From contig CAXXUG010000011.1 in assembly GCA_963664835.2 (NCBI GenBank), forward strand, positions 69,434-133,433: 64,000 bases of DNA, in the 5' to 3' direction. Positions within the stretch are counted from its first letter, which is position 1. The number at the start of each line of letters is the position of its first letter. The position numbers and the translations under genes were made by a program. The notes beneath the pieces are model-generated. The model worked only from the letters and a program-made list of their open reading frames with translations, did no database searches and had not been told where the DNA came from. Positions 5,271 to 64,000 of this stretch are shown here, piece by piece. This stretch comes from Chloroflexota bacterium (GTDB taxonomy: Bacteria > Chloroflexota > UBA6077 > FW602-bin22 > JBCLEL01).

Positions 5271-7134
5271 CGCAGCCAGGTCGAATGAGTACGACGTAGT
5301 GGTGATAGGCGGTGGGCCCGCCGGCTCTACCGCGGCCTCGTTGCTTTCACAGCGGGGACGCCGGGTCCTGCTTCTCGAAAAAGAGAGCTTCCCGCGCCAC
5401 CACGTTGGCGAGTCTCTCCTTCCAGGCACCATCGAGGTCATGAAGCAGCTTGGAGTGCTTGAGACAGTCAAGCAAGCCGGCTTCGTACCCAAGTACGGCG
5501 CTACTTACGTTTGGGGAAAATCACGACAACCTTGGTCGGTCCAGTTCCGTGAGGTCACTAATAAGTCGGGCCTTGACAGCGACAAGCCTGACCAGTCCTT
5601 CCAGGTAGATCGATCCAAGTTCGATAAGATTCTCCTGGACCACAGTCGGGAATCTGGCGTAAAGGTCCTGGAAGGGTGCCGTGCCACCAGCGTTGATCGA
5701 GACGAGCAAAGCGTAACCCGGGTCGGTTATGTGGACCAGTCGGACGTCCCACGAGTAGCCAACTGTCAATTCTGTGTAGACGCTTCTGGCCAAAGTAGTT
5801 TGCTCGGGAATAGCCTGGACCTTCGGGAATTCAACGAATCGCTTAGAAACATCGCGCTGTACGGCTACTACCAGGGCGGACGTCCGTTGAGTGACCTGGT
5901 CCCGAACCCGGATCCCAAGAGCAACGGAAACATCTTCATCGCCGCAACTGAAGCCGGCTGGATCTGGTACATACCACTTGGCGGCGGCCGGTACAGCGTG
6001 GGACTGGTCACCGACGGCTCATCTTCTGGGGAGATAAATCGCGTAGGTCGCTACAAGTTCTATCGGGACAGTTTGGATAGTACTCGTGAGATTGCGTTCC
6101 TGCTGGAAGACGCCCAGATTGAGTCCGAATCACTTCATACGTTGAGCGACTGGTCATACATCTGTCGAAAGTTTTACGGGCCGGGATATCTGTTGGCAGG
6201 TGATGCCGCCGCCTTCATAGACCCGATTCTTTCGACTGGGGTCCATTTAGCGATGGATGGTGGCCGTCAGGCAGCGCTCGCTATCAACACGTCCCTATGC
6301 GATGCCGATCTGACGGACCAGGCTATGCAATGGTACGAGGAAGGATACAGGTCTAACGCGTCCAATTATCTACAGATGGCTGAGCACTGGTACCTCGGTC
6401 ATCGGAGTCAGACAGGGTGGTTTTCCGCCGCCAGGAACCTGGTGGATCCAACCTCTAATTTGTCCATCAGACAGGCATTTGTTCACGTGGCCGGCGGCTA
6501 CAAGTCCGACCTGTTGCCGTTCGCTGGATATCCCACTGACCAGTTGAAGACCATGTACTCGAACTTCGATAGCGCGTTGCCGAAGAGTGTCGAAGAACCT
6601 GTCGCTGTACCTATAAGCGACGGGTCGGGCAAGGTGCTGTTCAAGCGACAAGGAGAGCTTGAAGAAAGCCGTCCACGATTCCAAAAAGGCGTCAGTTATC
6701 GCGCAACGTTGGGTGCCCGTAAGTCGACCGATACGACGCTAGCTCCGCTAGTCCAGGTCGAGCAAGAGGCGGAGGGCGTAACCTGGCGAAAACGTGTCCT
6801 TTCGGTTGAGTCGTTGGGTCTGCTGCAGAAAATCGATGGGACTCGCACGGTCCGGCAGATCGTGGACGAGCTAATGGGCGGGAACGGCGCCGGCGGGGAT
6901 CGCTTCTTCCGAGAAGTGAGACGACACTATCTGGTCGGGCTCACCAAGAAGCTCTACGACGGGGGCATCATTACTTCGACGATGCCTGGCCGGCGCCGGG
7001 CCAAGCGAAAGGGCATTGCCGTAAGTGCTGCCGGAAGTCCGGCGGCTAGACGTAGCATCGGTCGCAACGACCCTTGCCCTTGCGGTAGTGGAGAGAAGTA
7101 CAAGCGTTGCCACGGGCGCTCGAGATCACGTTGA
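5254..7134 (+). CDS. Flavin-dependent halogenase-like monooxygenase fused to a PqqD/RRE-like domain and a C-terminal SEC-C zinc motif
   Basis: GGGPAGS dinucleotide fold (aa 19-25) and Lys80 in FVPKYG. The halogenase signatures are GWIWYIP (WxWxIP, aa 235-241) and FIDPILSTG (aa 321-329). A PqqD-like segment LLQKIDGTRTVRQIVDEL...LYDGGII spans aa ~505-575. The basic tail ends in DPCPCGSGEKYKRCHG (nt 7069-7116). Confidence 0.78.
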   Translation: MASEIAAARSNEYDVVVIGGGPAGSTAASLLSQRGRRVLLLEKESFPRHHVGESLLPGTIEVMKQLGVLETVKQAGFVPKYGATYVWGKSRQPWSVQFREVTNKSGLDSDKPDQSFQVDRSKFDKILLDHSRESGVKVLEGCRATSVDRDEQSVTRVGYVDQSDVPRVANCQFCVDASGQSSLLGNSLDLREFNESLRNIALYGYYQGGRPLSDLVPNPDPKSNGNIFIAATEAGWIWYIPLGGGRYSVGLVTDGSSSGEINRVGRYKFYRDSLDSTREIAFLLEDAQIESESLHTLSDWSYICRKFYGPGYLLAGDAAAFIDPILSTGVHLAMDGGRQAALAINTSLCDADLTDQAMQWYEEGYRSNASNYLQMAEHWYLGHRSQTGWFSAARNLVDPTSNLSIRQAFVHVAGGYKSDLLPFAGYPTDQLKTMYSNFDSALPKSVEEPVAVPISDGSGKVLFKRQGELEESRPRFQKGVSYRATLGARKSTDTTLAPLVQVEQEAEGVTWRKRVLSVESLGLLQKIDGTRTVRQIVDELMGGNGAGGDRFFREVRRHYLVGLTKKLYDGGIITSTMPGRRRAKRKGIAVSAAGSPAARRSIGRNDPCPCGSGEKYKRCHGRSRSR

Positions 7135-12157: not shown

Positions 12158-12197
12158 AGGGTCGCTCAATGCGGAAGTTATTGGGGGAAGACAGACG

Positions 12198-14663: not shown

Positions 14664-14704
14664 CGAGGGCGCTCAATGCGGAAGTTATTAGGAGAAGACA
14701 GACG

Positions 14705-17188: not shown

Positions 17189-17232
17189 TGGCCGGGCGCC
17201 GCGACACGAAATCTGCTAACGGAGGATATTCG

Positions 17233-19698
17233 ATGACGATGCAGGAGAATTCGCTTTGGTCTCGCTCTTTCGAGTTGGTCTATTACGATCCTTCACCTGA
17301 TTTCCAGGGCCGCACACACTTCCGAGACCCCGAGAACGACGCCCTGACCACCGAGCAGCGAATTGCTTACGTCGAGGCATACACTGATCTGCTGCGCCGG
17401 GAAAACGACCTTGGGGAGCGCTACCTGTCGACTGAGGTGGTGAGCGATGAGGAGTCAGAGCAGCTCGCCTCTCAGATCAAGAACAGGCCGATGTCGAATC
17501 AGCGCAATACCGTCCCCCTCTGCTTCTGGCGCTGGAAGCTGCAGGGCGCCGAGAACGACGAGTGGGTTGCGCCCGACTTCGATGACAGCGTCTGGAACGA
17601 GCTGGAAGTTCCTACCGTCCTCGATATGGGCAGAGCCATGCTTCTGAGATCCAAAGCTCATATCGAACCTTCAGAACGAGTTGTGCTAGATATCGAATCT
17701 ATCCACGACGAGTACGAACTTTGGGTCAATGGCCAGTCAGTAGTTCACCACAAAGGGTATGAGCCGCACTCCGTCGACATCACATCGGTCATACGGGCGG
17801 GCCAGGAGAATACGTTTGCAATCAAGGTTGCCGAGAAGAAAGGCTACCAGATCGGCATCGCCGGCTCGATCCAGTTGGTGGGCACCCGTTCGGCCTACAT
17901 AGACGATGTGTTTGTGAAGCCGGTCGAGGCGATGGAAGATCGGCCGGCCCGAGTGCAGATCATCACGACCGTTCGGAATGCCGGCGGTCAGGCTTTCACT
18001 GGTCGACTGGCGGCCCGTTTCTACCGGTGGTTCCCGGAGGAAGATGCGGCAGTCGCCTATGAGGCGCCGTCAATGGAGGTGGAGGTTGGGCCAGGCCAAT
18101 CGGCGGAGCTAAACCAGGAATGCAACTGGTCCGGTGCGGAGCTGTGGTGGCCGGAGAGCCCTCGCATCTACAGGCTGGAGGCCACGCTGAGCTCAGATGA
18201 TGACGAGCGCATGGACGACTATGCGGATACTGTTGGCATTCGTACTATAGAGCAGCGTGGAGGCCGGTTCTACCTGAACGGCCGGCGATTCGTGATGCGC
18301 GGTTTCTGCGACAACCTCGGATTTGCGCCGGCTCCAGACTCCCACGGCGCGACCTGCCCACCAGACGCCTGGATCGCCAGGGACCTCATCCTGGCGAAGC
18401 GTGCCAACGCCAACACCGTTCGAATACACCCCTGGGGTTTCAGCGGTCAGCCGGGGCAATACGACGACCGGGGCTGGCCAGTCTGGGGCTTGCCTACCGA
18501 TGGCACCAACTACGGCCGCGTAGCCGAGATTGCTGATCAGATTGGTATCTGTCTCGTCTGGGTAACGCGCCATTGGACGCTGTGGGCCGATGGGTTCCGC
18601 GAACACTACAATAGCGACGAGATGGAAACGCTTCTGGCGCCTTCACTGAAGCAGGTGCGAAATCATCCCAGCATCATTTCCTACGAGGGGCTGAATGAGG
18701 TGGGAGTGGGCCTGGGACCACGCGTAATCTTGGGTCGGGAAGGTGCCGAGCCGGAGTGGACTAGCCATTTGCTGCCGGATGAAGTTGAGACGCTGACCGA
18801 ATTCCATGTGCGTCTTTACAGAGATTTCTGTGCCAGTTACATCCGGTTGGTCAACTCGGTTGACGATTCGCGAGTAGTCTGCCCAGACTCCCAATGGGGG
18901 CCTGGTTACCAAGACTTTGCCGAGAGGTCGGACGCGGTCCAATTCGATGACGAGTCCGTGTTTACCATGGCGGAGAACGTCTATTGGGACTTCCACCATT
19001 ACCCTGGCTGGTACACGGACATCAAGGATATGTATGCGCGGAAAGAGCGTTTTTGGCCGGATGACCGGGCCCGAGCGGTCATTTGTGGCGAATATTCGGC
19101 AGAGGCTATGCCCGACTGGAATCGCTACCGAGGGCTGCCCTGGCGAAACACCTGGCTGAACAATGGACGCCCCACCGGTGAAATCGAGCAGGCGCGCCTG
19201 GGTCGGCCGCTGCGCGTGCTGCGGGACTCGGAGGCGCATCTGTCACAGGCCTATCACGGGCTTTGTATCTATCATTCCGCCGTCTACTTGCGCGCCACTG
19301 GTTGCGACGGCATGATCAGCCCCATCTTGGCCGACGGGTTATCCGAGGGCCAGTACCACAAGGGTTTTTTGGACCTGCATCGCCGCGCTAAGTTGGGATA
19401 CTTTGCTGTGACTATGACTTATCAGCCCACCCTAGTAACCGGAATGGACGGCGACTTTGTCTTCTCCCGGGACGACTCTTTGCACCTAGTCCTGGTGAAT
19501 GATGCGCCGCAGCGAGTTAGCAGGCCGGCAACGGTGCTGGTGCAGGCCAAGAAGTTGGACGGTTCGGTTGTAGACTCCAGGGAGGTGAGGGTAACTATCG
19601 ATGATTCAGGCATCATGCCCCTTGGAGAGTTTCAGCCGCAGTTTCCAAGCTCAGGGTTGTACCAAATCGAATACACAGTTGTGGCCGATCCGGATTGA
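17233..19698 (+). CDS. GH2-like glycoside hydrolase, tandem copy 4 (both catalytic Glu present)
   Basis: The start is set at ATG 17233 (GGAGG SD; MTMQENSLWSRSF aligns with the other copies). The ORF is open from 17185. The acid/base motif is ISYEGLNEVG (GAG 18697-18699). ICGEYSAEAM closely resembles LacZ ILCEYAHAMGN. Confidence 0.8.
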   Translation: MTMQENSLWSRSFELVYYDPSPDFQGRTHFRDPENDALTTEQRIAYVEAYTDLLRRENDLGERYLSTEVVSDEESEQLASQIKNRPMSNQRNTVPLCFWRWKLQGAENDEWVAPDFDDSVWNELEVPTVLDMGRAMLLRSKAHIEPSERVVLDIESIHDEYELWVNGQSVVHHKGYEPHSVDITSVIRAGQENTFAIKVAEKKGYQIGIAGSIQLVGTRSAYIDDVFVKPVEAMEDRPARVQIITTVRNAGGQAFTGRLAARFYRWFPEEDAAVAYEAPSMEVEVGPGQSAELNQECNWSGAELWWPESPRIYRLEATLSSDDDERMDDYADTVGIRTIEQRGGRFYLNGRRFVMRGFCDNLGFAPAPDSHGATCPPDAWIARDLILAKRANANTVRIHPWGFSGQPGQYDDRGWPVWGLPTDGTNYGRVAEIADQIGICLVWVTRHWTLWADGFREHYNSDEMETLLAPSLKQVRNHPSIISYEGLNEVGVGLGPRVILGREGAEPEWTSHLLPDEVETLTEFHVRLYRDFCASYIRLVNSVDDSRVVCPDSQWGPGYQDFAERSDAVQFDDESVFTMAENVYWDFHHYPGWYTDIKDMYARKERFWPDDRARAVICGEYSAEAMPDWNRYRGLPWRNTWLNNGRPTGEIEQARLGRPLRVLRDSEAHLSQAYHGLCIYHSAVYLRATGCDGMISPILADGLSEGQYHKGFLDLHRRAKLGYFAVTMTYQPTLVTGMDGDFVFSRDDSLHLVLVNDAPQRVSRPATVLVQAKKLDGSVVDSREVRVTIDDSGIMPLGEFQPQFPSSGLYQIEYTVVADPD

Positions 19699-19727: not shown

Positions 19728-21998
19728 TTGGGAAGGAAAAGGCACTTGGCCGAGGACGAGCGGACCAGCGATAATCGTCGGACAGCCGATCACGGTGACC
19801 GGCTCAGCCGTCTCGATGACACTCAGCGAGTGCGCGAACTGGTCCTTGCCGTTGCCTTTCTCGGTCTGCTAGTGGTCCAAAGTGCCCACCAGGCCGAGTA
19901 CGTCATCCGTTTATTGCAGCGCGACGTATTCAACAACCCAACCGCAAACGGACTGCTTGGTCAGTTCTTGGATCTCGAACCCCTTGATCTGGCCTACAAC
20001 CTCGCTTGCTTCTTGCTACTGCTTTTGGTGTACAGGTCAAGTAATGCTCATAATCCTGGGCGATGGACCCGCGGAATGCCAGCCTGGTGGTTGCTCACCT
20101 TGGCGCTCGCGATCGGGGGTTACCACCTTGTTGATCACCTCTTTAAGATCTGGCAATTCATCGACACCCGACGCGAAGGAATGCCCGGCATTCTAGGCGA
20201 CTCCTTGAACCTGACCTGGCTAGACTTCGCACTCAACACAACATCCTATTTGGCGGTTGTGGCGGCCTTTTGGCTGGGTGGCTACTACCGGCATCTGAAG
20301 GCTGACCTGGCAGCACTATGGGCTGAGATTGCCGGCAGCACATCTGTCGGGCGGACTGCTCACGGGTTGCCGACCCTTTCCCGCCGGGGGCTTTTCATAG
20401 GAGCGGTTGGCATTGCGGCGGCGCTAGGGGCGGCCCGAGTCGGCATTCGCGCCTGGCGCCCTCCGATCGAAATGCCAACTTTCGCTGATGCAACCCGGTC
20501 GGCTGGGATCGATTTCAGGCACCGTGAGCACTTTCTCCCGGAGCCAATTCAGGCTGGCGCCGCCTTCTTCGACTATGACGGTGACGGACGTCCTGACATC
20601 TTCCTGACCAACGGCAGCGGACCTAACGCCCTCTATCGCAACAACGGTGATGGCACGTTCGATGACGTAACCGCCAAAGCTGGCCTTGTCGATCCTGATG
20701 AAGTCGCAATCGGTGTAGCCTGCGCAGATTACAACAACAATGGTAACTGCGATCTACTCGTAACTACACTGGAAGGACCTAAGCTCTTCCGCAACAACGG
20801 CGATGGTACATTCACCGATGTCACCAAACCGGCTCGTCTCCATGGGTATCACGGACACCCGACTTCAGTGGCCTGGACCGATTTCGACGGCGACGGCTAT
20901 TTGGATCTCTACGTCGCATATTGGTTCAACTTGTTTCCAAAGCCGATCCACGATCCATCGCTGGCGGCTTTCAGGGATAGTAAGAGACCCGAGCATCGCT
21001 CCCATGTTTTGTTCAGGAACAATGGCGATGGCACTTTCACGGATGTGTCAGAGTACCTTGACCCGCGGCCCAGGCACGGTACTGGCCTTGCCGTCGGATT
21101 CTTCGACTATGATGACGATGGCCGCCCAGATCTATACGTCGTGAATGACTTCGGCCAATATAGGGGGCCTAACACCCTCTATCACAACTCTGGTCCTGTG
21201 GGAGGCGGTTGGGCGTTCACTGACGTCTCTAGGCAGGCCGGCGCTCGTGCTGAAATGGACGGAATGGGTTTGGCGGTCGGGGACTACGATGGAGATGGCC
21301 GGCTGGACATGTACATTACGAACAGGGGCAGCAACTTGCTATATCGCAACCGTGGTGACGGAACTTTCGAGGAATCGACAGGTAGTGCAGGGGTTGGCCG
21401 TGGAGAGGTTGGCGGTGAATACTCAGTCGGTTGGGGCAACGCCTTTTTGGACTTCGACAATGATGGCTTGCTCGACCTCTACTTCGTCGCGGGCAACATC
21501 TATCCTAAAACGAATGTCAACGGAGATTATGGTCCTGACCAGCCAAACGCGCTATTCCACAATCGAGGCGCCGGCAAGTTCCGCGATGTGTCAGCTATCA
21601 CCGGCACTGACCACACTGGAGTAGCCAGGGGATTGGCGGTGGCTGACTATGACGGCGACGGATTCCTGGACCTGCTGGTGGCCAACATCGATCAACCACC
21701 AGTATTGTTGCGAAACTCTGGCAATGATAACCATTGGCTAGCGGTTCAGCTAGTTGGCAAGCGCAGCAACCGTGATGGTGTCGGCGCCCGGCTAGCGTTA
21801 ACCGCCGGCGGACGGCGGCAGGTCCGGGAGATCCATAGCGGCACCAGCTTTCTGTCTCAGCATAGCCTGGTGGCTCACTTTGGCCTCGGTCGACTCGATC
21901 GTGCTGACGAGCTACAGATTCGCTGGCCCAGTGGCGTTGTACAAACGCTTACGAACCTGGTGGTCGATCGCGAGATTACAGTAACAGAAGCAGTCTGA
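19728..21998 (+). CDS. CRTAC1 / ASPIC-UnbV family protein (FG-GAP/VCBS-like repeats) with an N-terminal polytopic membrane region
   Basis: Repeated FRNNGDGTFTDV / DYDGDG motifs. The C-terminal RDGVGARLALTAGGRRQVREIHSGTSFLSQHSLVAHFGLG matches the ASPIC/UnbV domain. The first ~210 aa hold 4-5 hydrophobic segments. An internal TAT-like SRRGLFIGAVGIAAALGAA lies at aa ~218. The true start is uncertain (TTG at 19728). Confidence 0.78.
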   Translation: MGRKRHLAEDERTSDNRRTADHGDRLSRLDDTQRVRELVLAVAFLGLLVVQSAHQAEYVIRLLQRDVFNNPTANGLLGQFLDLEPLDLAYNLACFLLLLLVYRSSNAHNPGRWTRGMPAWWLLTLALAIGGYHLVDHLFKIWQFIDTRREGMPGILGDSLNLTWLDFALNTTSYLAVVAAFWLGGYYRHLKADLAALWAEIAGSTSVGRTAHGLPTLSRRGLFIGAVGIAAALGAARVGIRAWRPPIEMPTFADATRSAGIDFRHREHFLPEPIQAGAAFFDYDGDGRPDIFLTNGSGPNALYRNNGDGTFDDVTAKAGLVDPDEVAIGVACADYNNNGNCDLLVTTLEGPKLFRNNGDGTFTDVTKPARLHGYHGHPTSVAWTDFDGDGYLDLYVAYWFNLFPKPIHDPSLAAFRDSKRPEHRSHVLFRNNGDGTFTDVSEYLDPRPRHGTGLAVGFFDYDDDGRPDLYVVNDFGQYRGPNTLYHNSGPVGGGWAFTDVSRQAGARAEMDGMGLAVGDYDGDGRLDMYITNRGSNLLYRNRGDGTFEESTGSAGVGRGEVGGEYSVGWGNAFLDFDNDGLLDLYFVAGNIYPKTNVNGDYGPDQPNALFHNRGAGKFRDVSAITGTDHTGVARGLAVADYDGDGFLDLLVANIDQPPVLLRNSGNDNHWLAVQLVGKRSNRDGVGARLALTAGGRRQVREIHSGTSFLSQHSLVAHFGLGRLDRADELQIRWPSGVVQTLTNLVVDREITVTEAV

Positions 21999-23100: not shown

Positions 23101-24763
23101 TGTTTCATAATTCAGGCATGAGAGGAATTGGTAAAATTGAGGGAGGGAAGGTGATTGGAGGATAGGTAGATGCCACATAGACCGATGAGCCGAGAGCAGA
23201 TGTGGATAATGCCGCCGAGTCTTGAGGATTTGCTTCCAGCCGACCATCCAGCTCGATTCGTGGGGGAGTTCGTGGATGCCTTGGAGGAGGAGAACTGGGC
23301 GGAGTTGGGGGTGGACATAGAAGGAGGGCGACTGGGAGCGCCCGGATACCACCCACGAGGGCTGTTGAGCGTGTGGTTGTATGGGTTCATGACGGGGGTG
23401 CGGTCTAGTCGAAAGCTGGAGGCGGCGTGTGGGGAACAGATACCGTATCTGTGGCTGACGGGCTGTCAGCGCCCGGATCACGTGACTTTGTGGAGGTTCT
23501 ACAAGGCACATCGGCAGGGGATGAGAAAGCTGTTCGAACGGACAGTGAGGACAGCGGTGAGGATGAAGCTGGTGAGCTTGGCGGTGCAGGCGGTTGATGG
23601 TACGAGGGTGGGGGCGAACGCAGCGAGAGATAGGACCTACGATGCGGAGGGACTGCGCAGGCTGTTGAAGCGGTTGGAAGAGGCTATAAGGGAACTGGAG
23701 GCTCAGAATGAAGGTGGGGAAGATGCTGAACCGGCGCGGCTACCAAAGGAGTTGGCCCAGAAGAAAGGCCTGAGAGAACGGGTACGTGAGGCGATGGAGG
23801 AATTGGCAGGTGAAGGGGAGACGAAGCGGATCAACCTGACCGATGCAGAGGCTCAGTTCATGAAGACACGTCAGGGGATCATGCCGGCCTTCAACGCTCA
23901 AGCAATGGCCACGCCGGTGGAGTTAGAGGGGAAAGCGAGTGGCATGTTGGTCACAGCGGTTGAAGTGGTGGAAGAGACGAATGACTTCGCCCGATTGATC
24001 CCGATGCTGGAACAGGCCGAGGAAACCACGGATAGGAAAGCAGAAACGACGTTGGCGGATGCCGGTTATCATTCGGGGCGCAACTTGGAGGAATGCGCCA
24101 ATAGAGGTCAGGAGGTGGTGATGCCGGAGTCGCAGCACAAGGCGCTGAAGAGTCCGTATCACAAGGATCGATTCACATACGACGAGGATAGCGACAGCTA
24201 TATCTGTCCTCTAGGACAGAGACTTCGCTTCAGCACAATGAAGAAAACTCGTGGTGTACCGATGCGCCTGTATCGTGGCTCAGCGGCCTTGTGCCGTAAA
24301 TGTCCGGCCTTCGGGGTCTGTACCAAAGACCGGCGACATGGCCGTGCACTAGAGATAGGGCCACATGACCAAGTGCTGCGCAGTCATCGGGACTGGATGT
24401 GCACAGACGAAGCCCAGAAGAAATATAAGCAGAGAAAACAACTGGTGGAACCGGTATTCGGGATCATCAAAGAGCAGCAGGCGGGGCGAAGATTCCTGCT
24501 CCGCAGTAGGGCCAAGGTGGCAGCAGAGTGGACGATGTTGGCGACGGCCTTCAACCTGCGCACCCTCTGGCGGGCATGGCGATCTCGGACAGGCCCTCGA
24601 TGGCGCGTGGGTTGTGCAAATGGCGAAGTTTCGACCTATAGGTCGATCCTGGCGGGCATAATTGGTTCAGTTCTAAAGCTCTTGCCACTGCTCAGGACCG
24701 ATCTTCAGTCACTTTCACCCGGTGTACTTGCGTCGCGTCCACCACAATCCAATATCTGAAACA
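23101..24763 (+). mobile_element. IS1182-family insertion sequence (about 1.66 kb)
   Basis: A single transposase ORF fills the element. The termini are TGTTTCA...TGAAACA (7-bp perfect inverted repeat, about 11/16 when extended). It is flanked by the 17-bp direct repeat. The outer flanks rebuild a 15-bp-stem palindrome. Confidence 0.7.
23170..24759 (+). CDS. IS1182-family DDE transposase
   Basis: 529 aa. The N-terminal PPSLEDLLPADHPARFVGEFVDAL is an InsH-N-like domain. The C-terminal VEPVFGIIKEQQAGRRFLLRSRAKVAAEWTMLATAFNLRTL is typical of IS1182-family transposases. Confidence 0.9.
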   Translation: MPHRPMSREQMWIMPPSLEDLLPADHPARFVGEFVDALEEENWAELGVDIEGGRLGAPGYHPRGLLSVWLYGFMTGVRSSRKLEAACGEQIPYLWLTGCQRPDHVTLWRFYKAHRQGMRKLFERTVRTAVRMKLVSLAVQAVDGTRVGANAARDRTYDAEGLRRLLKRLEEAIRELEAQNEGGEDAEPARLPKELAQKKGLRERVREAMEELAGEGETKRINLTDAEAQFMKTRQGIMPAFNAQAMATPVELEGKASGMLVTAVEVVEETNDFARLIPMLEQAEETTDRKAETTLADAGYHSGRNLEECANRGQEVVMPESQHKALKSPYHKDRFTYDEDSDSYICPLGQRLRFSTMKKTRGVPMRLYRGSAALCRKCPAFGVCTKDRRHGRALEIGPHDQVLRSHRDWMCTDEAQKKYKQRKQLVEPVFGIIKEQQAGRRFLLRSRAKVAAEWTMLATAFNLRTLWRAWRSRTGPRWRVGCANGEVSTYRSILAGIIGSVLKLLPLLRTDLQSLSPGVLASRPPQSNI

Positions 24764-49163: not shown

Positions 49164-51308
49164 TTGGCAATAGAAACTTCGACGGTGCCGGGCGTAAGTA
49201 CCAAGCTTCATGTGACCGGAATGGATTGCTCCGATTGCGCTGCGTCCATCGGCCGAAACGTCGGCAAAATGGAGGGCGTAATCTCGGCCGAAGTCAGCTT
49301 CGCAACATCCAGAATGATCGTAGCCCACGACGAAACCCTGCCCGTCTCCAAGATCATTGCGACAGTAGAACAAAGTGGCTACGGCGCAACAGTCGCATTC
49401 GACGCTCAAGAGTCGGACACAAAAACGGAGGGCATGTGGATACCTGAGAGCCGAGTGGTGGAGACTTGTGCCTCAGGACTGGCGACGGCGGCAGGCTTCG
49501 TCGCAATCGCGGTCAACGCACCTGTGGTTGCCCAGGGACTTTTCGGGATAGCAATCGTGTTCGGCGGCTATCGCTTTGCCCGCCGTGGCGCTTATTCATT
49601 GGTTCGCTCCCGCGCGCTGGACATGAACGTGTTGATGTCGCTTGCTGTAGTTGGCGCCATCATTCTCGGGCATTGGGAAGAAGCGGCCGTAGTATCGTTT
49701 CTTTTCGCCCTCGGGAACTTGCTCGAGTCCCATACCATCGGGCGTGCGCGTGGCGCGATCAACGACCTGATTAAGCTAACGCCGGCGGAGGCGCGGGTTC
49801 GGCGGGGCGACCGGCGAGTCTCGCTGCCATCGAGCGAAATCAAAGTGGACGACGTGATTGTCCTGGCCGCCGGCGAGCGTATCCCTCTCGATGGACAGGT
49901 AATTGCCGGCGGCTCGTCGGTGGACCAGGCTCCCATCACCGGTGAATCGATGCCTGTCGATAAGAGCATCGGCGACGAAGTCTTCGCCGGTTCTATCAAT
50001 GGCGAAGGATATCTCGAGGTTAAAGTAAGCCGGCCATATCACGAGAATACGATCAATCGCATAGTCCGGTCGGTAGAGGAGGCCCAGGCAAGGAAAGCGC
50101 CAATCGAACGCTTGGTTGACAGCTTCGCCCGGCGTTACACGCCGGCAGTTGTCGCCATCGCGATCTTGATGATGTTGGTTCCCTGGCTCGGCTTCGGCCA
50201 GACATTCGAATCGGGATTCTACCGGGCGTTGGTTCTCCTGGTAATCGCTTGCCCATGCGCTTTGGTGATCTCGACGCCGGTTGCGACTGTCGCGGGCATC
50301 GCCCGAGCGGCGCGGGCCGGCCTGCTGATAAAGGGTGGGGCATACCTGGAGGCCGCTCGCTCGATTCGGGCGGTCGCCTTCGACAAGACCGGTACGCTTA
50401 CACACGGACGGCCGGCGGTCGTGGATATTGTGCCGGTAGATGGCACGCCAGTAGACGACGTGCTTAGAATCGCGGCAGCTATCGAGTCTCAATCGAGCCA
50501 TCCATTTGCTCTGGCGATACAGTGGCACCACCGGCACACCGGCGCATCGATGGCGCCGGCATCAGACTTCGCCGTGTTGACCGGAAGGGGAGCGCGAGCA
50601 AGGATTGACGGCCGGCTCTGCCACATAGGCAGCGGTCGGCTCTTCGACGAGCTGCGCGTAGACTACAGCGAGCTGAGCGAGGCGATGACGCACCACGAGT
50701 CGACGGGCCGGACTACGCTACTGGTGGCTGCAGATGGCAGGTGCTTGGGACTTGTCGCCGTCGAAGACACGATCAGACCGGAGGCGCGTGGGGTGGTGGA
50801 AGCCTTGCATCGGGCCGGGGTAAGACCGGTCGTGATACTCTCCGGCGACCATGAACGAACGGCCCGAGTGGTAGCTGACCGCGTTGGCTCCGACGAGGTG
50901 AGAGCGGGGTTGCTGCCGGAGCAGAAGTCAGGCGCTATCGCCGGACTGATCGCTCAACACGGGCCGGTGGCAATGATCGGTGATGGCGTCAATGACGCGC
51001 CGGCGCTGGCCAGCGCCTCCGTTGGCATGGCCATGGGCGTCGTTGGGTCGGATGTCGCGCTCGAGACCGCCGACATCGCGCTGATGTCCGACGATCTGAG
51101 CAAGATCCCGGCCGTCATCCGGTTCAGTGGCACGGCAGTTGAGACTATCCGGCAGAACATTGCGATTTCACTGGCCGCGAAAGTGGTCTTCGTTGCGCTC
51201 GGCGGTTTGGGGTTCGTCGGACTATGGATAGCAGTCTTCGCCGACATGGGAATTTCGCTGTTGGTGACCGCCAATGCCATGCGGCTCCTGCGTTCACGGG
51301 ACCTCTGA
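49164..51308 (+). CDS. Heavy-metal translocating P1B-type ATPase (Zn/Cd/Pb-type by motif)
   Basis: HMA domain GMDCSDCAASI, CPC in CPCALVISTP, DKTGTLT, GDGVNDAPAL, and a TM8-like FADMGISLLVTANAMRLL. TTG start at 49164. Confidence 0.92.
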   Translation: MAIETSTVPGVSTKLHVTGMDCSDCAASIGRNVGKMEGVISAEVSFATSRMIVAHDETLPVSKIIATVEQSGYGATVAFDAQESDTKTEGMWIPESRVVETCASGLATAAGFVAIAVNAPVVAQGLFGIAIVFGGYRFARRGAYSLVRSRALDMNVLMSLAVVGAIILGHWEEAAVVSFLFALGNLLESHTIGRARGAINDLIKLTPAEARVRRGDRRVSLPSSEIKVDDVIVLAAGERIPLDGQVIAGGSSVDQAPITGESMPVDKSIGDEVFAGSINGEGYLEVKVSRPYHENTINRIVRSVEEAQARKAPIERLVDSFARRYTPAVVAIAILMMLVPWLGFGQTFESGFYRALVLLVIACPCALVISTPVATVAGIARAARAGLLIKGGAYLEAARSIRAVAFDKTGTLTHGRPAVVDIVPVDGTPVDDVLRIAAAIESQSSHPFALAIQWHHRHTGASMAPASDFAVLTGRGARARIDGRLCHIGSGRLFDELRVDYSELSEAMTHHESTGRTTLLVAADGRCLGLVAVEDTIRPEARGVVEALHRAGVRPVVILSGDHERTARVVADRVGSDEVRAGLLPEQKSGAIAGLIAQHGPVAMIGDGVNDAPALASASVGMAMGVVGSDVALETADIALMSDDLSKIPAVIRFSGTAVETIRQNIAISLAAKVVFVALGGLGFVGLWIAVFADMGISLLVTANAMRLLRSRDL

Positions 51309-57503: not shown

Positions 57504-60131
57504 ATGCCACGACGCAAGAAGGCACAAACCAAGCGGCCGATAGAGTCGTACGACCACCGGGACAAGGAGCGCCTCAATAACCCGCCGGTGGGTCTCGTTA
57601 CGCCGGATACCGACAAAGACGCCGGCAAGAAGGCCTACGCCTACGATCCACATCTGGACCCACAGTTGCAATGGGCGGGCAAGGGGGAGCACACCTCTTT
57701 TGAAGTGCCGACCGTGTCGTTACACGTGCACGAGCGCATAGACCCACGCACGATCATCGAGGCCGTGCGCAAGCGGAACGGCGACGCGGGACTTCTGCAG
57801 GGAAGTCTTTGGGAGCTACCTGAGGAGAACCCACCGGTCCGAGAAGCCATCGAGTTCTACCGGCACCGGCACAACTGGACTAACCGTCTCGTCGCCGGCG
57901 ACAGCCTGCTGGTTATGAACAGCCTTCTAGAGAAGGAGGGCATGACCGGCAAGGTGCAGATGGTGTATATCGACCCGCCCTATGGCATCCGCTACGGCTC
58001 CAACTTCCAGCCGTTCGTCAACAAACGCGGCGTGACAGACGGCCGCGACGACGACTTAACCAATGAGCCGGAACAAATACGTGCATTCCGCGACACCTGG
58101 GAGTTGGGCATCCACTCCTACCTCAGCTACCTGCGGGACCGCCTACTGCTCGCGAGAGGATTGCTGGTGAATAGTGGTTCGTGTTTTGTCCAGATTAGCG
58201 ACGAGAACCTCCACCGTGTGCGGATGTTAATGGATGAAGTATTTGGGGTTGACAACTTCGTCGGCGTGATTTCTTTTACTAAAGCATCTGCTCAAAGCTC
58301 GAACTACCTCTCCACGTCATCCGACTATTTGATTTGGTATAGCCGCGAGAAATCTCAGTTGAAGTATCGTCCTCTTTTCCTCGACAAAATATCCGGGCAG
58401 GCTGGTGCAACAAACTATACGAACATAGAATCCAGTAGCGGTGAGACGTGGCGTCGAATGAGCCGCCAAGAACAAGATACTCCGTCGGTCATCCCCCAAG
58501 GCTGGAAAGTCTTCTCTTTGGACAACCTCTACGGGACACGGCCACCGAATCCTTCCGATTTGGGGCCATACGTTTTTAACGGTAAAACTTATAACGGCGA
58601 CAAGCGACGCTGCTGGAAAACTGATAAGAAGGGATTAGACCATCTTGCTATTGCCGGGAGATTGAGGCAATCTGGCAGAGGTTTGTATTACAAGAGATAC
58701 TTTAAAGACTTTCCTGTCTATCCTATGACAACCAATTGGACGGATACCGCTAGCAGTTTTATGGCAGATAAAGTGTATGCTGTTCAGACCACGACTAAAG
58801 TAATCCAGCGATGTGTTCTGATGACCACGGACCCTGGGGACCTCGTATTCGACCCTACCTGTGGCTCTGGCACAACAGCATTCGTAGCCGAACAGTGGGG
58901 CCGGCGCTGGATTACATGTGACACGTCAAGGGTGGCCATTGCCATCGCCCAGCAGCGGCTCATGACCGCAACCTACGACTACTACGAGCTAGCTCACGCG
59001 GACGAGGGAGTTGGCAGCGGCTTTAGCTACAAGACAGTGCCCCACGTCACTCTGGGTTCAATCGCGAACAACCCGGAGATCAAGGAGGGCATGACCCAAA
59101 CGGAGATCGATACTGCTATCGCTCGGCACGCGCCCCAGGAGACATTGTACGACCAGCCTTTGGTAGACAACAGCAAGAAGCGGGTAAGCGGTCCATTCAG
59201 CGTGGAGGCAGTGCCCGCCCCCGTCGTAAAGCCTCTTGACGAGATTGCAGACGGAGTACCGCCCGCCGACGACACAGTGGCGCGCGCCGGGGAGACGCTG
59301 CGGCAGTCGGACTGGCGGGACGAACTACTCAGGACCGGCATCCGGGGCAAGGCGGATCAGTTCATCCAATTTGCGCGGCTGGAGCCATTGCCGGGCTGCC
59401 GGCACCTGCACGCCGACGGACAGACGCGTCCAAACGACCGCGGCACCAACTACATCCGGGAAGGAGGCGCGGCTGCCGCAACCCAGCGGCTCGTCGTATC
59501 GTTCGGCCCCGATCATGCGCCGTTAGAGCAGCGCCAAGTGGAACTCGCCATCATGGATGCGCAGACGTTAGTGCCCAAGCCGAAGGTAATAGTATTTGCC
59601 GCCTTCCAGTTCGATCCCGAGGCGGCCAAGGACATCGACGAGACCAACTGGCCGGGCGTGACGCTGTTGAAGGCTCAGATGAACGCTGATCTGCTCACCG
59701 ACGACTTAAAGAAAAAACGTGCCAGCAACGAGAGCTTTTGGCTTATCGGACAGCCGGATGTCGTGCTGCATCAGATTAGCAAAGGCTATAGTATCGGCAA
59801 ATGGCAAGTGTACGTGCGCGGGTTCGATTATTACAACACCAAGACCGGCGACGTCGAATCGGGAGGGGAGGACAAGATAGCGATGTGGCTCCTGGATCCG
59901 GACTATGACGGTCGGAGCCTATTTCCGCGTCAGGTGTTCTTTCCCATGGCCGGTGCTAACGATGGGTGGGCGCGATTGGCCCGCAATCTGAAAGCGGAAA
60001 TCGACGACGACCTTATCGACGCCTACCGAGGCACAGTCTCTTTGCCGTTTGAGGCCGGCGATCATAGGCGAATCGCCGTCAAGATCGTAGACGACCGTGG
60101 CATCGAGAGCCTCCGCATCCTGACGATCTGA
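57504..60131 (+). CDS. mod: Type III-like R-M DNA methyltransferase (beta-class N6A/N4C, Mod)
   Basis: Motif IV VYIDPPYG (nt 57972-57983) precedes motif I FDPTCGSGTTAF (nt 58788-58811). An AT-richer putative target-recognition segment lies between them. 875 aa. Confidence 0.88.
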   Translation: MPRRKKAQTKRPIESYDHRDKERLNNPPVGLVTPDTDKDAGKKAYAYDPHLDPQLQWAGKGEHTSFEVPTVSLHVHERIDPRTIIEAVRKRNGDAGLLQGSLWELPEENPPVREAIEFYRHRHNWTNRLVAGDSLLVMNSLLEKEGMTGKVQMVYIDPPYGIRYGSNFQPFVNKRGVTDGRDDDLTNEPEQIRAFRDTWELGIHSYLSYLRDRLLLARGLLVNSGSCFVQISDENLHRVRMLMDEVFGVDNFVGVISFTKASAQSSNYLSTSSDYLIWYSREKSQLKYRPLFLDKISGQAGATNYTNIESSSGETWRRMSRQEQDTPSVIPQGWKVFSLDNLYGTRPPNPSDLGPYVFNGKTYNGDKRRCWKTDKKGLDHLAIAGRLRQSGRGLYYKRYFKDFPVYPMTTNWTDTASSFMADKVYAVQTTTKVIQRCVLMTTDPGDLVFDPTCGSGTTAFVAEQWGRRWITCDTSRVAIAIAQQRLMTATYDYYELAHADEGVGSGFSYKTVPHVTLGSIANNPEIKEGMTQTEIDTAIARHAPQETLYDQPLVDNSKKRVSGPFSVEAVPAPVVKPLDEIADGVPPADDTVARAGETLRQSDWRDELLRTGIRGKADQFIQFARLEPLPGCRHLHADGQTRPNDRGTNYIREGGAAAATQRLVVSFGPDHAPLEQRQVELAIMDAQTLVPKPKVIVFAAFQFDPEAAKDIDETNWPGVTLLKAQMNADLLTDDLKKKRASNESFWLIGQPDVVLHQISKGYSIGKWQVYVRGFDYYNTKTGDVESGGEDKIAMWLLDPDYDGRSLFPRQVFFPMAGANDGWARLARNLKAEIDDDLIDAYRGTVSLPFEAGDHRRIAVKIVDDRGIESLRILTI

Positions 60132-60142
60132 GAACGGGATTC

Positions 60143-61417
60143 ATGCTGACAGAATTGAAGCTCTCGAATTTCAGAATCTTCGACGACGAAGTCACTGTCC
60201 GATTCAGGCCGATTACTGTTCTCATTGGTCGAAATAGTTCGGGAAAGTCGTCGATCATAAAATTTCTTCTGATGCTGCAACAGTCACTTGGCCCCGGCAT
60301 GCCTCAGTTCCTCTCTCCCGAGGGAGATAGGGTTAAATTGGGCGTTTTCTCAGAACTTAAGAACTCGCTGACTCGCAAGAAAAACCTCAAGTTTGAACTA
60401 ACTGCAAAGAGTCCAACAACTCATCCTGGCGTTGTCATATTTCGAACCTTGCGCCTACGCGAAAATGTAGACTTCAGCAAACTGCTATTCAAGACCAATG
60501 CCACGGTGTCCTACGGCAAGAAAACTAGGAGAGGGCATGCCCGTCACTGGTTAGCCCATGAAAGCGAAGGCGCCAACTTCCTAAAAGTAGCTACCGAGAT
60601 TCTTGATGACTCTACTTTTTTGGATCAGGCAACCGATGTTTGGGACCAAGGTGATAAGTCACTCGAACGCCTTAAGGAATCGTTCGCTCGTTCTTTTGCG
60701 GAGCATCAACTCCTAGACACGTTGCGCTATCAGCTCAACTCAATTCGTCATCTCTCACCGGTTAGAGATGAGTCCCAAAGAGTCATCATTGCATCCCCTC
60801 CTCCGATCGATTACGTGGGGCAGAGAGGACAGTATGTCTTACCCCATCTCCAGCAGATGACAACCGAATACAAGGATAGATACGATTTCATTTTGCCGCA
60901 CCTAGATACCGTAGCGGGTATCGGGGATATTGAGTTCAAGAAATCAACAGGATACGTGAGTCAGGCCTTCGCACGAAACAAAGCGACTGGGGCAGACGTG
61001 CTCATAGCGGACTATGGATTCGGAGTGAGTCAGTGCCTGCCAATTTTCGTTCAGGGCGCCGTGATGCCTCGATATACTGCGTTGATGGTCGAGCAACCCG
61101 AAGCCCAGCTTCACCCCACGGCTCAACTTGAAATGGGAAGTTTTTTTGCCGATCTGTGGAGAAAACGAAGAGTCGAGTCCATCATCGAGACCCATAGCGA
61201 TAACATACTTCTCAGACTACGACGACTGATCGCGAATGGGCAACTTTCTCACGAAGATGTTTCAGTGGCGTTCTTTACGTTCGATCCGGAATACGAAAAT
61301 ATGCCGATTGTCAAGAACCTAGACATCAACGAAGACGGCTCCATGCAGCCTGGCCTGCCAATGGAATTCTTTGGCGCCGATGTCATAGAAGGACTGAGCC
61401 TCGGAGCGCGGGTTTGA
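60143..61417 (+). CDS. ABC-type/AAA ATPase with a DUF3696-like C-terminus
   Basis: Walker A GRNSSGKSS (nt 60227-60253), Walker-B-like ALMVEQPEAQLHP, and H-loop region IETHSDNILLRLRRLI. It starts 11 nt after mod. Confidence 0.85.
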   Translation: MLTELKLSNFRIFDDEVTVRFRPITVLIGRNSSGKSSIIKFLLMLQQSLGPGMPQFLSPEGDRVKLGVFSELKNSLTRKKNLKFELTAKSPTTHPGVVIFRTLRLRENVDFSKLLFKTNATVSYGKKTRRGHARHWLAHESEGANFLKVATEILDDSTFLDQATDVWDQGDKSLERLKESFARSFAEHQLLDTLRYQLNSIRHLSPVRDESQRVIIASPPPIDYVGQRGQYVLPHLQQMTTEYKDRYDFILPHLDTVAGIGDIEFKKSTGYVSQAFARNKATGADVLIADYGFGVSQCLPIFVQGAVMPRYTALMVEQPEAQLHPTAQLEMGSFFADLWRKRRVESIIETHSDNILLRLRRLIANGQLSHEDVSVAFFTFDPEYENMPIVKNLDINEDGSMQPGLPMEFFGADVIEGLSLGARV

Positions 61418-61983
61418 CCAGCGCGTTTTTTGAAGAATGCGTGGCAATTGACACTAACGTGTTTGAGCACCTATTGAATCCTCAAGTTAATACTGAATCG
61501 CACATAAGCGGTTTGCTCCAAGATCTTCAAAGACAAGAAATCGCCCTTATTCTCGATGATAAGAAACGTGTCTCGGGCGAGTATGAGAACCGCATCACGC
61601 CTGCCATCCGCAATGCTGATGTTATGCGCGCAGAATTGCCCATTCTGCGTTATTGGTTTTTGGATGCACCACGACTCGAAGTCCCCCTAGACTTGCGTGA
61701 CCAGCTTATGCAAACGATCAAAGCAGTGATTAATGAATCTTCTGAGAGCGTGGATAGGATTCTTGTCTATGTGGCCTTCAAGAAGGGAAAAACTCTCATT
61801 ACCAATGATGAGACTCATATAGTAATGGGACCACCTACGGAGCAAGCGCAAGCTCCGCGACGGGCCAGACTGCTGCGTCGCACGAAGAAAATACGAGCGG
61901 CAGGATCTTGCATTTTGACCTCTAAAGAAGCGTACACAGAGATTAATCGATGTCCCACACCACCATCGATCGACTCATCGTAA
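61414..61983 (+). CDS. PIN-like domain protein (putative nuclease)
   Basis: The N-terminal VAIDTNVFEHL carries the first PIN acidic residue (D13, nt 61450-61452). A late LITNDETH motif is also present. The TTG start overlaps the ATPase stop (TTGA). The 3' end overlaps the res start by 34 nt. Confidence 0.6.
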   Translation: MTSAFFEECVAIDTNVFEHLLNPQVNTESHISGLLQDLQRQEIALILDDKKRVSGEYENRITPAIRNADVMRAELPILRYWFLDAPRLEVPLDLRDQLMQTIKAVINESSESVDRILVYVAFKKGKTLITNDETHIVMGPPTEQAQAPRRARLLRRTKKIRAAGSCILTSKEAYTEINRCPTPPSIDSS

Positions 61984-64000
61984 ACTCACCGTATGCAGAG
62001 CCGAAACGGCACTGGGTATATGAGCGTGAGACACGGCTATTCGATCTCGCAACGGGCCGGCGTCCCGCCGGGTACCTGATAGCGTCGGGTGACTCCAAGA
62101 GCTTCGACGACCCTGGTGTGTTCGTGGAGATTCCTCTGGTAAACCGGATTCGGCAGCGGGTGCGGGCATGGCGTGAGGCCGGATATCCAGGCGTGACCAG
62201 TATCACAAAGCGCCTGCTGGAATTTTGGACGGACACAGAGGAGTTCGACGCGCGCCGCTTCTTCTTCTGCCAACTGGAAGCGGCGGAGACACTGATATGG
62301 CTCACCGAAGCGCCGGTTGCTGAGAGGGTGGGCATCTACGTACCCTCGGACGGTGGCGACTTTGAGCGTCTCTGTTCCAAGATGGCGACCGGATCGGGAA
62401 AGACGGTCGTCATGGCCATGATCATCGCTTGGCACTTACTGAACAAGGTCACCTATCCCCAGGACACTCGATTCTCCAAGAATGTTCTGGTGGTCGCGCC
62501 CGGCCTGACGGTCAAGAGCCGCCTCGCCGTCCTGGAGCCGTCACATCCTGAGAACTATTACGAGGCGTTCCGTGTGGTGCCATCACCTCTACTAGATCAG
62601 CTCCGGCAAGGTAAGGTCATCATTCGTAACTGGCATGCGCTCAACTGGGAGACGGACGAGCAGATCAACAAGAAGCGCAGCGTCGACAAACGCGGAGCCA
62701 AGAGTGATGAAGCATACGTTAGAGACGTTCTAGGTGAGATGGCTAACGCGAACAACTTGTTGGTCGTCAACGATGAGGCACACCACGCTTGGCGCGTTCC
62801 GGCTGAGTCCAAGGTCAAGGGTGTTGCCAAGTCCGACATCGAGGAAGCGACCAAGTGGGTCGGCGGTCTTGATCGGATTCACCGAGCACGCGGGATTCTA
62901 ACGTGTTACGATTTCTCAGCTACGCCGTTCGCTCCATCCGGCAGGAGAAGCTCGGAGGAGGCGTTGTTCAACTGGATAGTGAGCGACTTTGGGTTGAACG
63001 ATGCCATAGAGTCCGGGTTGGTCAAGACACCACGGGTCGTAGTCCGCGACGATGGGCAACTGGATGCTACGACCTTCAAATCACGCCTATACCACATCTA
63101 CAACGATCCGGAAGTTAAGGACGACCTGAACCGCAAGGCTGAACCCCACGAGCCTCTACCTGACCTCGTAAATAACGGATATTACCTGCTCGGGTACGAC
63201 TGGAGGGAAACGGCGAGGAGTTGGCAAAACGCTGGATTCAAGACGCCACCGGTTATGATCACGGTCGCGAACCGCACCGAAACAGCAGCAAGAGTTAAAT
63301 TCGCTTTTGACCGCAAAAGGGTTTTGATCGACGAACTGTGTGAACGTGAACGCACACTGCACATCGATTCCAAGGTGCTGAAGCGTGCCGAGGAATCCGA
63401 AGAGCCAATTGCCAGGGTAGTTGCGAACACCGACGCCGCGAGTAATGGCGCAGCCGTTCAGAAGCTGACCGCAGACCAGAGGGCCGAGCAACTGCGCCGG
63501 ATGGTGGATACGGTGGGCCGGCCGGGGCAGCCCGGTGAGGAGATACAGAACGTCATTTCCGTGGGAATGCTGTCCGAAGGATGGGACGCAAAGACTGTCA
63601 CGCACATTATGGGCTTGCGTGCGTTTACGAGTCAGCTTCTGTGCGAGCAGGTGGTGGGACGAGGTCTGCGCCGCACGGCCTACGACGTGAACCCTGAGAC
63701 GGACCTATTCGAACCTGAGTATGTCAACATATTCGGTGTCCCGTTCACGTTTCTTCCGCACGAGTCTGATGATAGTGTCGTACCGAAGCCTCCGACACCC
63801 AAGACCGCGATCGAGCCGGTGCCGGATAGGGCCGAGCTCGAGATTACGTGGCCCAACATCTTGCGAGTCGAGCACGTCTACCGGCCACGACTCCTTCTCG
63901 ATTGGGAGAAGGTTAGTCCCTTGGAGCTAAACGCCAACCAGACCGCGGAGTTCGCCGAACTCGCGCCAATTGTCGCTGGGAAGCCCGACATCTCAAGAAT
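61950..64000 (+). CDS. res: Type III-like restriction enzyme Res subunit (SF2 helicase), 3'-partial at the window edge
   Basis: The frame is open from ATG 61950 to the end of the window, so it is not in the supplied track. N-terminus MSHTTIDRLIVNSPYAEPKRHW. Walker A is KMATGSGKT, motif II is VVNDEAHHAW, and motif VI is EQVVGRGLRR. Confidence 0.85.
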   Translation, partial: MSHTTIDRLIVNSPYAEPKRHWVYERETRLFDLATGRRPAGYLIASGDSKSFDDPGVFVEIPLVNRIRQRVRAWREAGYPGVTSITKRLLEFWTDTEEFDARRFFFCQLEAAETLIWLTEAPVAERVGIYVPSDGGDFERLCSKMATGSGKTVVMAMIIAWHLLNKVTYPQDTRFSKNVLVVAPGLTVKSRLAVLEPSHPENYYEAFRVVPSPLLDQLRQGKVIIRNWHALNWETDEQINKKRSVDKRGAKSDEAYVRDVLGEMANANNLLVVNDEAHHAWRVPAESKVKGVAKSDIEEATKWVGGLDRIHRARGILTCYDFSATPFAPSGRRSSEEALFNWIVSDFGLNDAIESGLVKTPRVVVRDDGQLDATTFKSRLYHIYNDPEVKDDLNRKAEPHEPLPDLVNNGYYLLGYDWRETARSWQNAGFKTPPVMITVANRTETAARVKFAFDRKRVLIDELCERERTLHIDSKVLKRAEESEEPIARVVANTDAASNGAAVQKLTADQRAEQLRRMVDTVGRPGQPGEEIQNVISVGMLSEGWDAKTVTHIMGLRAFTSQLLCEQVVGRGLRRTAYDVNPETDLFEPEYVNIFGVPFTFLPHESDDSVVPKPPTPKTAIEPVPDRAELEITWPNILRVEHVYRPRLLLDWEKVSPLELNANQTAEFAELAPIVAGKPDISR

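Follow-up and report, generated by a model that had tools for sequence, protein, structure and literature searches.

An ABC-type ATPase and PIN-fold protein pair between mod and res of a BPTD_3080-family Type III-like restriction-modification operon: a probable HEC-03-type defence cassette

The four-gene operon and its proteins

The locus described here lies at the end of a 64,000-nt stretch of DNA (the window) from a Chloroflexota bacterium, which covers positions 69,434 to 133,433 of contig CAXXUG010000011.1 in assembly GCA_963664835.2. Two genes, one for an ATP-binding cassette (ABC)-type ATPase and one for a putative PIN-fold nuclease, are nested there between mod and res, the methyltransferase and helicase-nuclease genes of a Type III-like restriction-modification (R-M) operon. 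The four genes follow one another in the same direction:

57504..60131, forward strand: mod, Type III-like N6/N4 DNA methyltransferase, 875 aa, host gene on the upstream side of the slot
60143..61417, forward strand: ABC-type ATPase, 424 aa, ATG start, of the clade of NsnB, HEC-03A and AriA
61414..61983, forward strand: putative PIN-fold nuclease, 189 aa, TTG start, recognised by AlphaFold2 (AF2), Foldseek and hhalign
61950..64000, forward strand: res, Type III-like helicase-nuclease of the BPTD_3080 family, frame open at the window end

The genes are packed tightly, with a gap of 11 nt between mod and the ATPase gene, an overlap of 4 nt (TTGA) between the ATPase and PIN genes and an overlap of 34 nt between the PIN gene and res, of which 683 of about 940 codons are visible. 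GGAG is located 7 nt 5' of the TTG of the PIN gene, and this start is supported by an N-terminus, MTxxPFxDxVAIDTNVF, that is common to the homologues. Since each of the four open reading frames (ORFs) has hundreds of homologues, they are real genes and not chance frames. Internal promoter-like and terminator-like sites in the cluster stayed at chance level without excess, consistent with a single operon, and scans for Rfam families, tRNA genes and tandem repeats returned nothing relevant, with no tRNA gene or Rfam family in the whole 64 kb. A first-pass annotation, made from the sequence alone, had described the same gap and overlaps and an ABC-ATPase and PIN cassette nested within a Type III-like R-M operon, and the description holds; the motifs it quoted (GRNSSGKSS, MVEQPEAQLHP, ETHSDN, VAIDTNVF and LITNDE) were all found, and its comparison of the pair with the PARIS defence system, whose ATPase AriA is of the same ABC clade, and its assignment of the 189-aa partner to the PIN proteins agree with the profile matches, model and conserved residues given below.

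The host genes were assigned by profile. Mod matched Pfam N6_N4_Mtase (9.1e-30) and the PADLOC model MTase_III PDLC03632 (1.5e-168). Res matched Pfam ResIII as well as NCBIfam NF046055, 'BPTD_3080 family restriction endonuclease', at 5.5e-261 and 868.6 bits, above the equivalog cut-off of 800 bits; with Res above that cut-off and Mod adjacent to it, the operon belongs to the BPTD_3080 family. Near the C-terminus of Res, a PD...ExK motif is invariant in the full-length relatives, and the R-M pair therefore has a nuclease of its own. A PDB sequence search with Res gave no match. Membership of an Hma system was considered and rejected, as no Hma model was found among the best 25 of 60 PADLOC matches for Mod, the best 25 of 114 for the ATPase or all seven for Res.

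The ATPase matched Pfam AAA_15 (3.8e-23) and AAA_21 (1.9e-12), and also AAA_23 and SMC_N. Over its full length it was matched by the PADLOC models for NsnB of the Menshen system (1.7e-49), for PDC-M55A (7.9e-42) and for the ATPase of HEC-03, designated HEC-03A (4.8e-37), and further by the two AriA models of PARIS (2.8e-25 and 2.4e-11). A PDB sequence search with the ATPase gave an OLD-family P-loop match only, and its nearest relatives come from metagenome-assembled genomes of Chloroflexota/Dehalococcoidia. In an alignment of 64 homologues the following motifs stood out:

60227..60253, forward strand: Walker A GRNSSGKSS, residues 29-37; G29, N31, G34, K35 and S36 invariant in 64/64
61082..61102, forward strand: Walker B variant LMVEQPE, residues 314-320; E317 in 64/64, Q318 in 63/64, P319 and E320 in 64/64
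61187..61198, forward strand: H-loop ETHS, residues 349-352; E349, H351 and S352 invariant in 64/64
61352..61375, forward strand: C-terminal tail motif GLPMEFFG, residues 404-411; near-invariant, the putative equivalent of the DUF3696 region

A glutamine at position 47 and a GFGV signature-like motif were also invariant or near so in the same homologues. The usual position of the catalytic glutamate in Walker B is occupied by glutamine (63/64). The resulting EQPE is common to HEC-03A, and EEPE is found at this place in OLD-family proteins. In ABC ATPases, replacement of the catalytic glutamate by glutamine slows hydrolysis, and the EQPE Walker B suggests that the protein would act as a slow nucleotide-dependent switch rather than as a motor. 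At the C-terminus, a DUF3696-type tail had been claimed. An alignment with HEC-03A places the tail on the DUF3696 stretch of that protein, and the GLPMEFFG motif is near-invariant, whereas the Pfam DUF3696 profile (PF12476) gave nothing significant on the window ATPase, not even at E <= 10 with the tail alone; a close homologue scores 12.3 bits on this profile.

The 189-aa protein was modelled by AF2 from an alignment of 26 sequences, with a predicted local distance difference test score (pLDDT) of 89.9 and a predicted template-modelling score (pTM) of 0.87. The leading Foldseek matches of this model in the PDB were VapC, FitB, PAE2754 and other PIN proteins, with probabilities of 0.97-1.0; a PDB sequence search with the protein gave chance-level matches only. 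Among 54 diverse relatives, the Pfam PIN profile PF01850 was matched at E <= 0.01 by nine, one of which reaches 23.7 bits where the gathering cut-off is 23.6 bits. The residues of the acidic site were counted in the alignment of these 54 relatives:

61450..61452, forward strand: D13, acidic, end of strand 1 (IDTNV); D in 52/52 aligned members
61555..61557, forward strand: D48; conserved in 52/54
61579..61581, forward strand: E56, acidic (GEY); 52/54
61753..61755, forward strand: D114, acidic (VDR); D in 54/54
61804..61809, forward strand: N131-D132 (TNDE), after strand 4; N131 in 53/54, D132 in 48/54 (N in 6)

The predicted fold, together with the acidic residues D13, E56, D114 and D132 conserved at canonical PIN positions, identifies the 189-aa protein as a member of the PIN fold that has kept its metal-binding site, and as a probable nuclease. 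The family is sharply bounded, with 250 members at E <= 1e-3 in a library of 1.84 billion representatives, and nearly all of them are single-domain proteins of 160-190 aa. An arginine-rich segment, PRRARLLRRTKKIR (window 61840-61920, PIN residues about 143-170), separates the ND motif from the last strand as an insertion; it is kept in most members of the family, shorter in some relatives and absent from the PIN proteins of HEC-03. It could serve in binding of RNA or of the ATPase.

Gene order and context of the pair across genomes

When 185,579 species-representative genomes were scanned for matches to the ATPase profile, 70 loci were obtained, 64 of them with a full-length ATPase. The hosts span at least ten phyla, with members of Chloroflexota, Cyanobacteria, Chlorobiaceae, Planctomycetota and Verrucomicrobiota, and further Acidobacteriota, Latescibacterota, Bdellovibrionota, Desulfobacterota and Gammaproteobacteria. 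The order mod-ATPase-PIN-res, with orthologous mod and res of the BPTD_3080 family on the two sides, was found in 52 of the 64 full-length loci (about 80%), and also on a Planktothrix plasmid. The linkage on which the first-pass annotation had made its proposal depend, of the homologues to each other and to R-M genes, was thus borne out for the subfamily of the window. The 4-nt overlap of ATPase and PIN genes recurs in 33 loci and the overlap of PIN and res in 24. Pairwise distances of the four proteins are correlated (Pearson 0.64-0.84, Mantel p = 0.001), with mean identities of 63% for Mod and 61% for Res against 46% for the ATPase and 35% for the PIN protein. About 11 solo pairs, from several lineages, are surrounded by unrelated genes and have their catalytic residues intact.

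The view from Res is different. A metagenome scan with the Res profile gave at least 594 relatives, the best 80 of which, with 62-72% identity to a Res of the four-gene kind, were retained; 66 of these loci had enough upstream sequence to be judged. The pair was present in 2 and absent from 64 of the 66, and mod abuts res in most. Rhizobium and Mycobacterium plasmids, which carry distant relatives of the R-M genes, also show plain mod-res. On a neighbour-joining tree of 111 Res proteins the two-gene or four-gene state changes 15 times, compared with a mean of 36.6 and a minimum of 28 under label permutation; the pair has therefore stayed with the operon through long periods of descent, yet it was gained or lost many times. 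An obligatory four-gene system is ruled out by the Res-side scan, the plasmid examples of plain mod-res and the Res tree. The intact solo pairs and the many R-M loci without the pair speak against a strict need of either partner for the other.

The slot between mod and res is used by other cargo as well. Among the metagenome loci (L079-L158) it was occupied by HEC-01 (L104 and L133; component A 1e-145, component B 1e-60), PDC-M24 (L100 and L148), PDC-M32A with a PIN protein (L103 and L151), an MNT-HepT pair (L101), a Bro-N protein (L144), a 572-aa AriA/NsnB-like ATPase (L079), a DUF488 protein, and 771-aa and 486-aa proteins without a family name (L121). The mod-res junction of the BPTD_3080 family is a general docking slot, or hotspot, for defence cassettes, and the ATPase-PIN pair is an accessory cassette that was repeatedly gained or lost, not a restriction subunit.

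The base composition of the pair also sets it apart from its host genes. The G+C content of the pair was below that of mod and res in all 48 of 48 four-gene loci (L002-L068), with a mean difference of -6.6 points. In the window the ATPase and PIN genes have a G+C of 0.49 and 0.47, against 0.57 for both mod and res, and at third codon positions (GC3) 0.53 and 0.46 against 0.69 and 0.68. Cassette exchange, selection for low toxin expression or faster evolution could each account for this.

These observations bear directly on the idea that the ATPase and the PIN protein are integral subunits of a four-component restriction enzyme, which would share with Mod and Res the tasks of DNA recognition, translocation or cleavage. 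In its favour are the gene order, kept across about 50 loci and coupled at translation, and the correlated divergence of the four proteins. Against it stand the close Res relatives that lack the pair, the invariant PD..ExK that Res keeps for itself, the unrelated cassettes in the same slot, the solo pairs and the distinct base composition; furthermore, HEC-03 and Menshen NsnB, the closest relatives, work without R-M genes. The integral-subunit reading is very improbable and can be regarded as essentially excluded.

Several individual loci depart from the common layout. At L017, a Menshen-like trio (14912-18122; a GmrSD_N/DUF262 protein, an AAA_15 and DUF3696 ATPase, and a 316-aa protein) was observed about 3 kb downstream of a solo pair, which has a DDE transposase directly upstream. 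At L001 (5045-10841), a solo-type pair has a 1036-aa Type ISP-like methyltransferase/specificity protein on one side and, on the other, an 88-aa Type_ISP_C fragment, with a HepT/MNT pair nearby, and it looks as if the pair had been inserted into, or beside, a different R-M type. At L006 (11538-13097) the PIN gene is interrupted by an inserted ORF of 463 aa. Mod, ATPase and PIN are each split into two ORFs at L004, as pseudogenes or through assembly errors. L025 and L045 have mod-ATPase-res with no PIN gene detected by the profile; the effector has been lost, or something invisible to the profile has taken its place. At six genome loci (L002/L049, 11843-14308; L040; L053; L055; L022; L026) a ubiquitin-like operon was found between PIN and res. 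Its products are a multi-ubiquitin-like protein, a prokaryotic E2, a fusion of JAB with ThiF(E1) and a protein of about 120 aa, with the Pfam families taken from L002 only, and the operon resembles a Bil-type ubiquitin-like conjugation defence operon.

Relation to HEC-03 and to other known systems

HEC-03 (Hma-embedded candidate 03) is a two-gene system composed of an ABC ATPase, annotated with DUF3696, and a VapC-like PIN protein (Payne et al. 2024, bioRxiv 10.1101/2024.01.29.577857). It was found by 'guilt-by-embedding' in Hma systems and is contained in PADLOC-DB v2 (Payne, Hughes, Fineran, Jackson 2024). A Pseudomonas representative lowered plaquing in R-M-deleted E. coli, and both genes were required (bioRxiv 10.1101/2024.01.29.577857); its mechanism was still undescribed according to a 2026 preprint. 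HEC-03 has exactly the composition for which the first-pass annotation had recognised no named system, and that claim therefore falls.

The window pair resembles HEC-03 in its order and size, with an ATPase (AAA_15/AAA_21, and in the window a tail that aligns with the DUF3696 region of HEC-03A) first, a PIN protein of about 160-190 aa second, and overlapping frames. Residues 1-416 of the window ATPase align with profile positions 1-440 of 458 in the HEC-03 ATPase model PDLC04148 (4.8e-37), and BLASTP against the tested P. cichorii-type HEC-03A gave 26% identity over residues 1-416 with an E value of 2e-27. For the PIN protein, hhalign of the family against a single HEC-03 PIN sequence gave a weak match (20%), and against a HEC-03 PIN family profile a match of 94.7% probability with E 5.7e-8 over 116 columns, in which the DTNV, DD..EY and DR motifs were aligned. 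These alignments indicate that each protein of the window pair is a remote homologue of its HEC-03 counterpart, and the order of the genes agrees. The differences are that the homology is remote, that the window ATPase scores better on the NsnB and PDC-M55A models, and that the arginine-rich segment before the last PIN strand is an extra of the window subfamily. Moreover, HEC-03 stands alone, with no adjacent R-M genes, at the three Pseudomonas places examined, whereas about 80% of the window subfamily is R-M-embedded. A match to a named defence system had been set beforehand as refuting the proposal of the first-pass annotation; in a weak form this is the case, as there is homology to HEC-03 on both components, but it is distant, and the PADLOC PIN model misses the window protein.

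Menshen (NsnA-NsnB-NsnC; Millman 2022) shares the order of an ATPase followed by a PIN-fold protein, and among the PADLOC models NsnB fits the window ATPase best. For the DUF3696 tail of NsnB, a contact with the PIN-like N-terminal domain that NsnC carries was predicted (Li et al. 2025, PMC12065111). In contrast to Menshen, the window pair has mod and res as neighbours and gave no DUF262/GmrSD_N match, so that it is without NsnA, the ParB-DUF262 sensor. The PIN domain of NsnC is inactive and followed by a C-terminal toxin domain, whereas the window PIN protein keeps its acidic residues and has a single domain.

PARIS combines the ABC ATPase AriA with the TOPRIM protein AriB (PMC9122126, PMC11464382), and in its accepted model a scaffold frees a tRNA-cleaving effector once an anti-restriction protein is sensed, with Ocr as the trigger (PMC11464382). 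The window ATPase belongs to the same broad ABC ATPase clade and likewise has a small nuclease partner, but it is less similar to AriA than to NsnB or HEC-03, and its partner is a PIN protein without an AriB match in PADLOC, where PARIS has a TOPRIM/DUF4435 effector. PARIS often travels on phages or satellites; in a scan of viral contigs, no copy of the pair was found.

PrrC, encoded in the EcoprrI Type Ic locus and almost exclusively embedded in Type I R-M systems, is also an ABC-type NTPase-linked RNase nested between co-oriented R-M genes. It unites the NTPase and an anticodon-nuclease domain in one polypeptide and has a Type I host, whereas the window pair is two proteins in a Type III-like host. 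For PrrC, latency through binding of the R-M enzyme was demonstrated; at the window locus only the embedding is seen. A literature search on BPTD_3080 and DUF3696 found no description of the mod-ATPase-PIN-res arrangement.

The leading structural matches of the PIN protein are VapC-type PIN toxins (VapBC, FitAB), with which it shares the fold and a D-E-D-D type acidic site, although its sequence similarity to them is under the Pfam thresholds. This raises an alternative in which the pair is an addiction module like a toxin-antitoxin (TA) system, with the VapC-like PIN neutralised by the ATPase and the R-M operon or a mobile element stabilised as a result. The toxin fold fits this explanation, as do the Pfam name of AAA_21, which refers to AbiEii/type IV TA, the MNT-HepT TA pair in the same slot at another locus, the four-gene form on the Planktothrix plasmid, and the PIN gene of L006 split by an ORF, which is compatible with a toxin cost. 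However, VapBC has a small DNA-binding VapB antitoxin encoded upstream, and no small VapB-type antitoxin is found here; the upstream gene encodes the 424-aa ABC ATPase, whose invariant nucleotide-binding motifs are typical of sensor-effector defence, and HEC-03 reduces plaquing. Addiction as the role of the pair is thus highly improbable, with the qualification that abortive infection and TA behaviour are not mutually exclusive.

Proposed function and its alternatives

The ATPase-PIN pair is best read, with a probability of about 0.6, as a self-contained HEC-03-type two-gene defence cassette that would have settled at the boundary of mod and res in an operon of the BPTD_3080 family. The homology to HEC-03 on both components points to this role, and the defence-island association of one solo copy, the one near the Menshen-like trio, supports the defence reading. 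The ATPase is proposed as sensor or scaffold and the PIN protein as effector; the ATPase tail is proposed as the docking site of its PIN partner, by analogy with Menshen. A mechanism can be sketched along the lines of PARIS (PMC11464382) and the Menshen models, in which an oligomer of the ATPase would hold the PIN protein inactive through the conserved C-terminal tail. A cue from infection may then alter the ATP-bound state of the ATPase, whereupon the PIN protein would be released or activated and cut RNA, most likely tRNA or rRNA as VapC-type PIN proteins do. Cutting of RNA would stop translation and abort the infection. Through transcription together with mod and res, and translational coupling to them, this second layer would arrive along with restriction.

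Several points weigh against this reading. The strong preference for one R-M family (52/64) is unexplained by a purely autonomous cassette. The window PIN protein has no match in Pfam, NCBIfam, PADLOC (E <= 0.1) or PHROGs, so that neither a Pfam PIN family nor the PADLOC model of the HEC-03 PIN recognises it, and its Foldseek matches are modest (E about 2e-3, TM-score 0.4-0.6). The AF2 model of the ATPase, built from a shallow alignment, reached a pLDDT of 46.8 and is unreliable; the ABC fold and the contact of tail and PIN protein consequently rest on hidden Markov model matches and analogy. The substrate of the PIN protein, the trigger and the oligomeric state of the ATPase are all inferred.

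The preference for one R-M family leads to the alternative that the pair guards restriction. A guard role of the PrrC or PARIS kind is plausible by analogy. In its strict form, the pair would monitor Mod and Res or bind phage anti-restriction proteins such as DNA mimics, depend on the BPTD_3080 enzyme, and let the PIN protein fire only when restriction is blocked. The residence of most subfamily ATPases between mod and res of a single R-M family across at least ten phyla is PrrC-like and unexplained by pure hitch-hiking. The correlated distances of the four proteins, the clustering of the four-gene state on the Res tree and the overlap of the PIN stop with the res start point the same way, as do the matches of the ATPase to AriA models and the precedents of PrrC, embedded in Type I R-M, and of PARIS, triggered by Ocr. 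On the other side, intact solo pairs occur among unrelated genes and one copy beside a Type ISP-like methyltransferase, many R-M loci are without the pair, HEC-03 is active in R-M-deleted E. coli, and simple hitch-hiking also predicts both linkage and correlated divergence. Strict guarding is therefore judged unlikely. It is decidedly doubtful that the subfamily is a dedicated guardian of BPTD_3080 Type III-like enzymes, in which the ATPase would read the state of Mod and Res or bind phage inhibitors and unleash the PIN RNase; if true, this would be a Type III counterpart of PrrC-EcoprrI with separate sensor and effector proteins.

The concept of embedding and the closest system, HEC-03, are both already published. 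What is new is that about 80% of the ATPase subfamily resides between mod and res of the BPTD_3080 family, and that this family is mostly plain mod-res, with varied defence cassettes in the same slot. The study of Payne et al. 2024 covered Hma, BREX, DISARM and Type I systems (bioRxiv 10.1101/2024.01.29.577857), and 'guilt-by-embedding' is hereby extended to a widespread Type III-like R-M family. A compact and well-delimited ATPase-PIN subfamily is defined, whose near-exclusive residence in one R-M family resembles that of PrrC, and which offers a clean system to tell guarding from hitch-hiking for embedded ABC-ATPase systems. Concrete targets for mutation are the switch-like EQPE of Walker B, the invariant tail of the ATPase and the acidic PIN site, which is intact.

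Elsewhere in the window, a flavin-dependent halogenase-like protein with a C-terminal SEC-C motif is encoded at 5254-7134. Four tandem paralogous genes for proteins of 821-837 aa with glycoside hydrolase family 2 domains occupy 9689-19698 and are followed by a gene for an FG-GAP/ASPIC protein at 19728-21998. A DDE transposase (DDE_Tnp_1_6/DUF772) is located at 23170-24759 and a heavy-metal P-type ATPase at 49164-51308.

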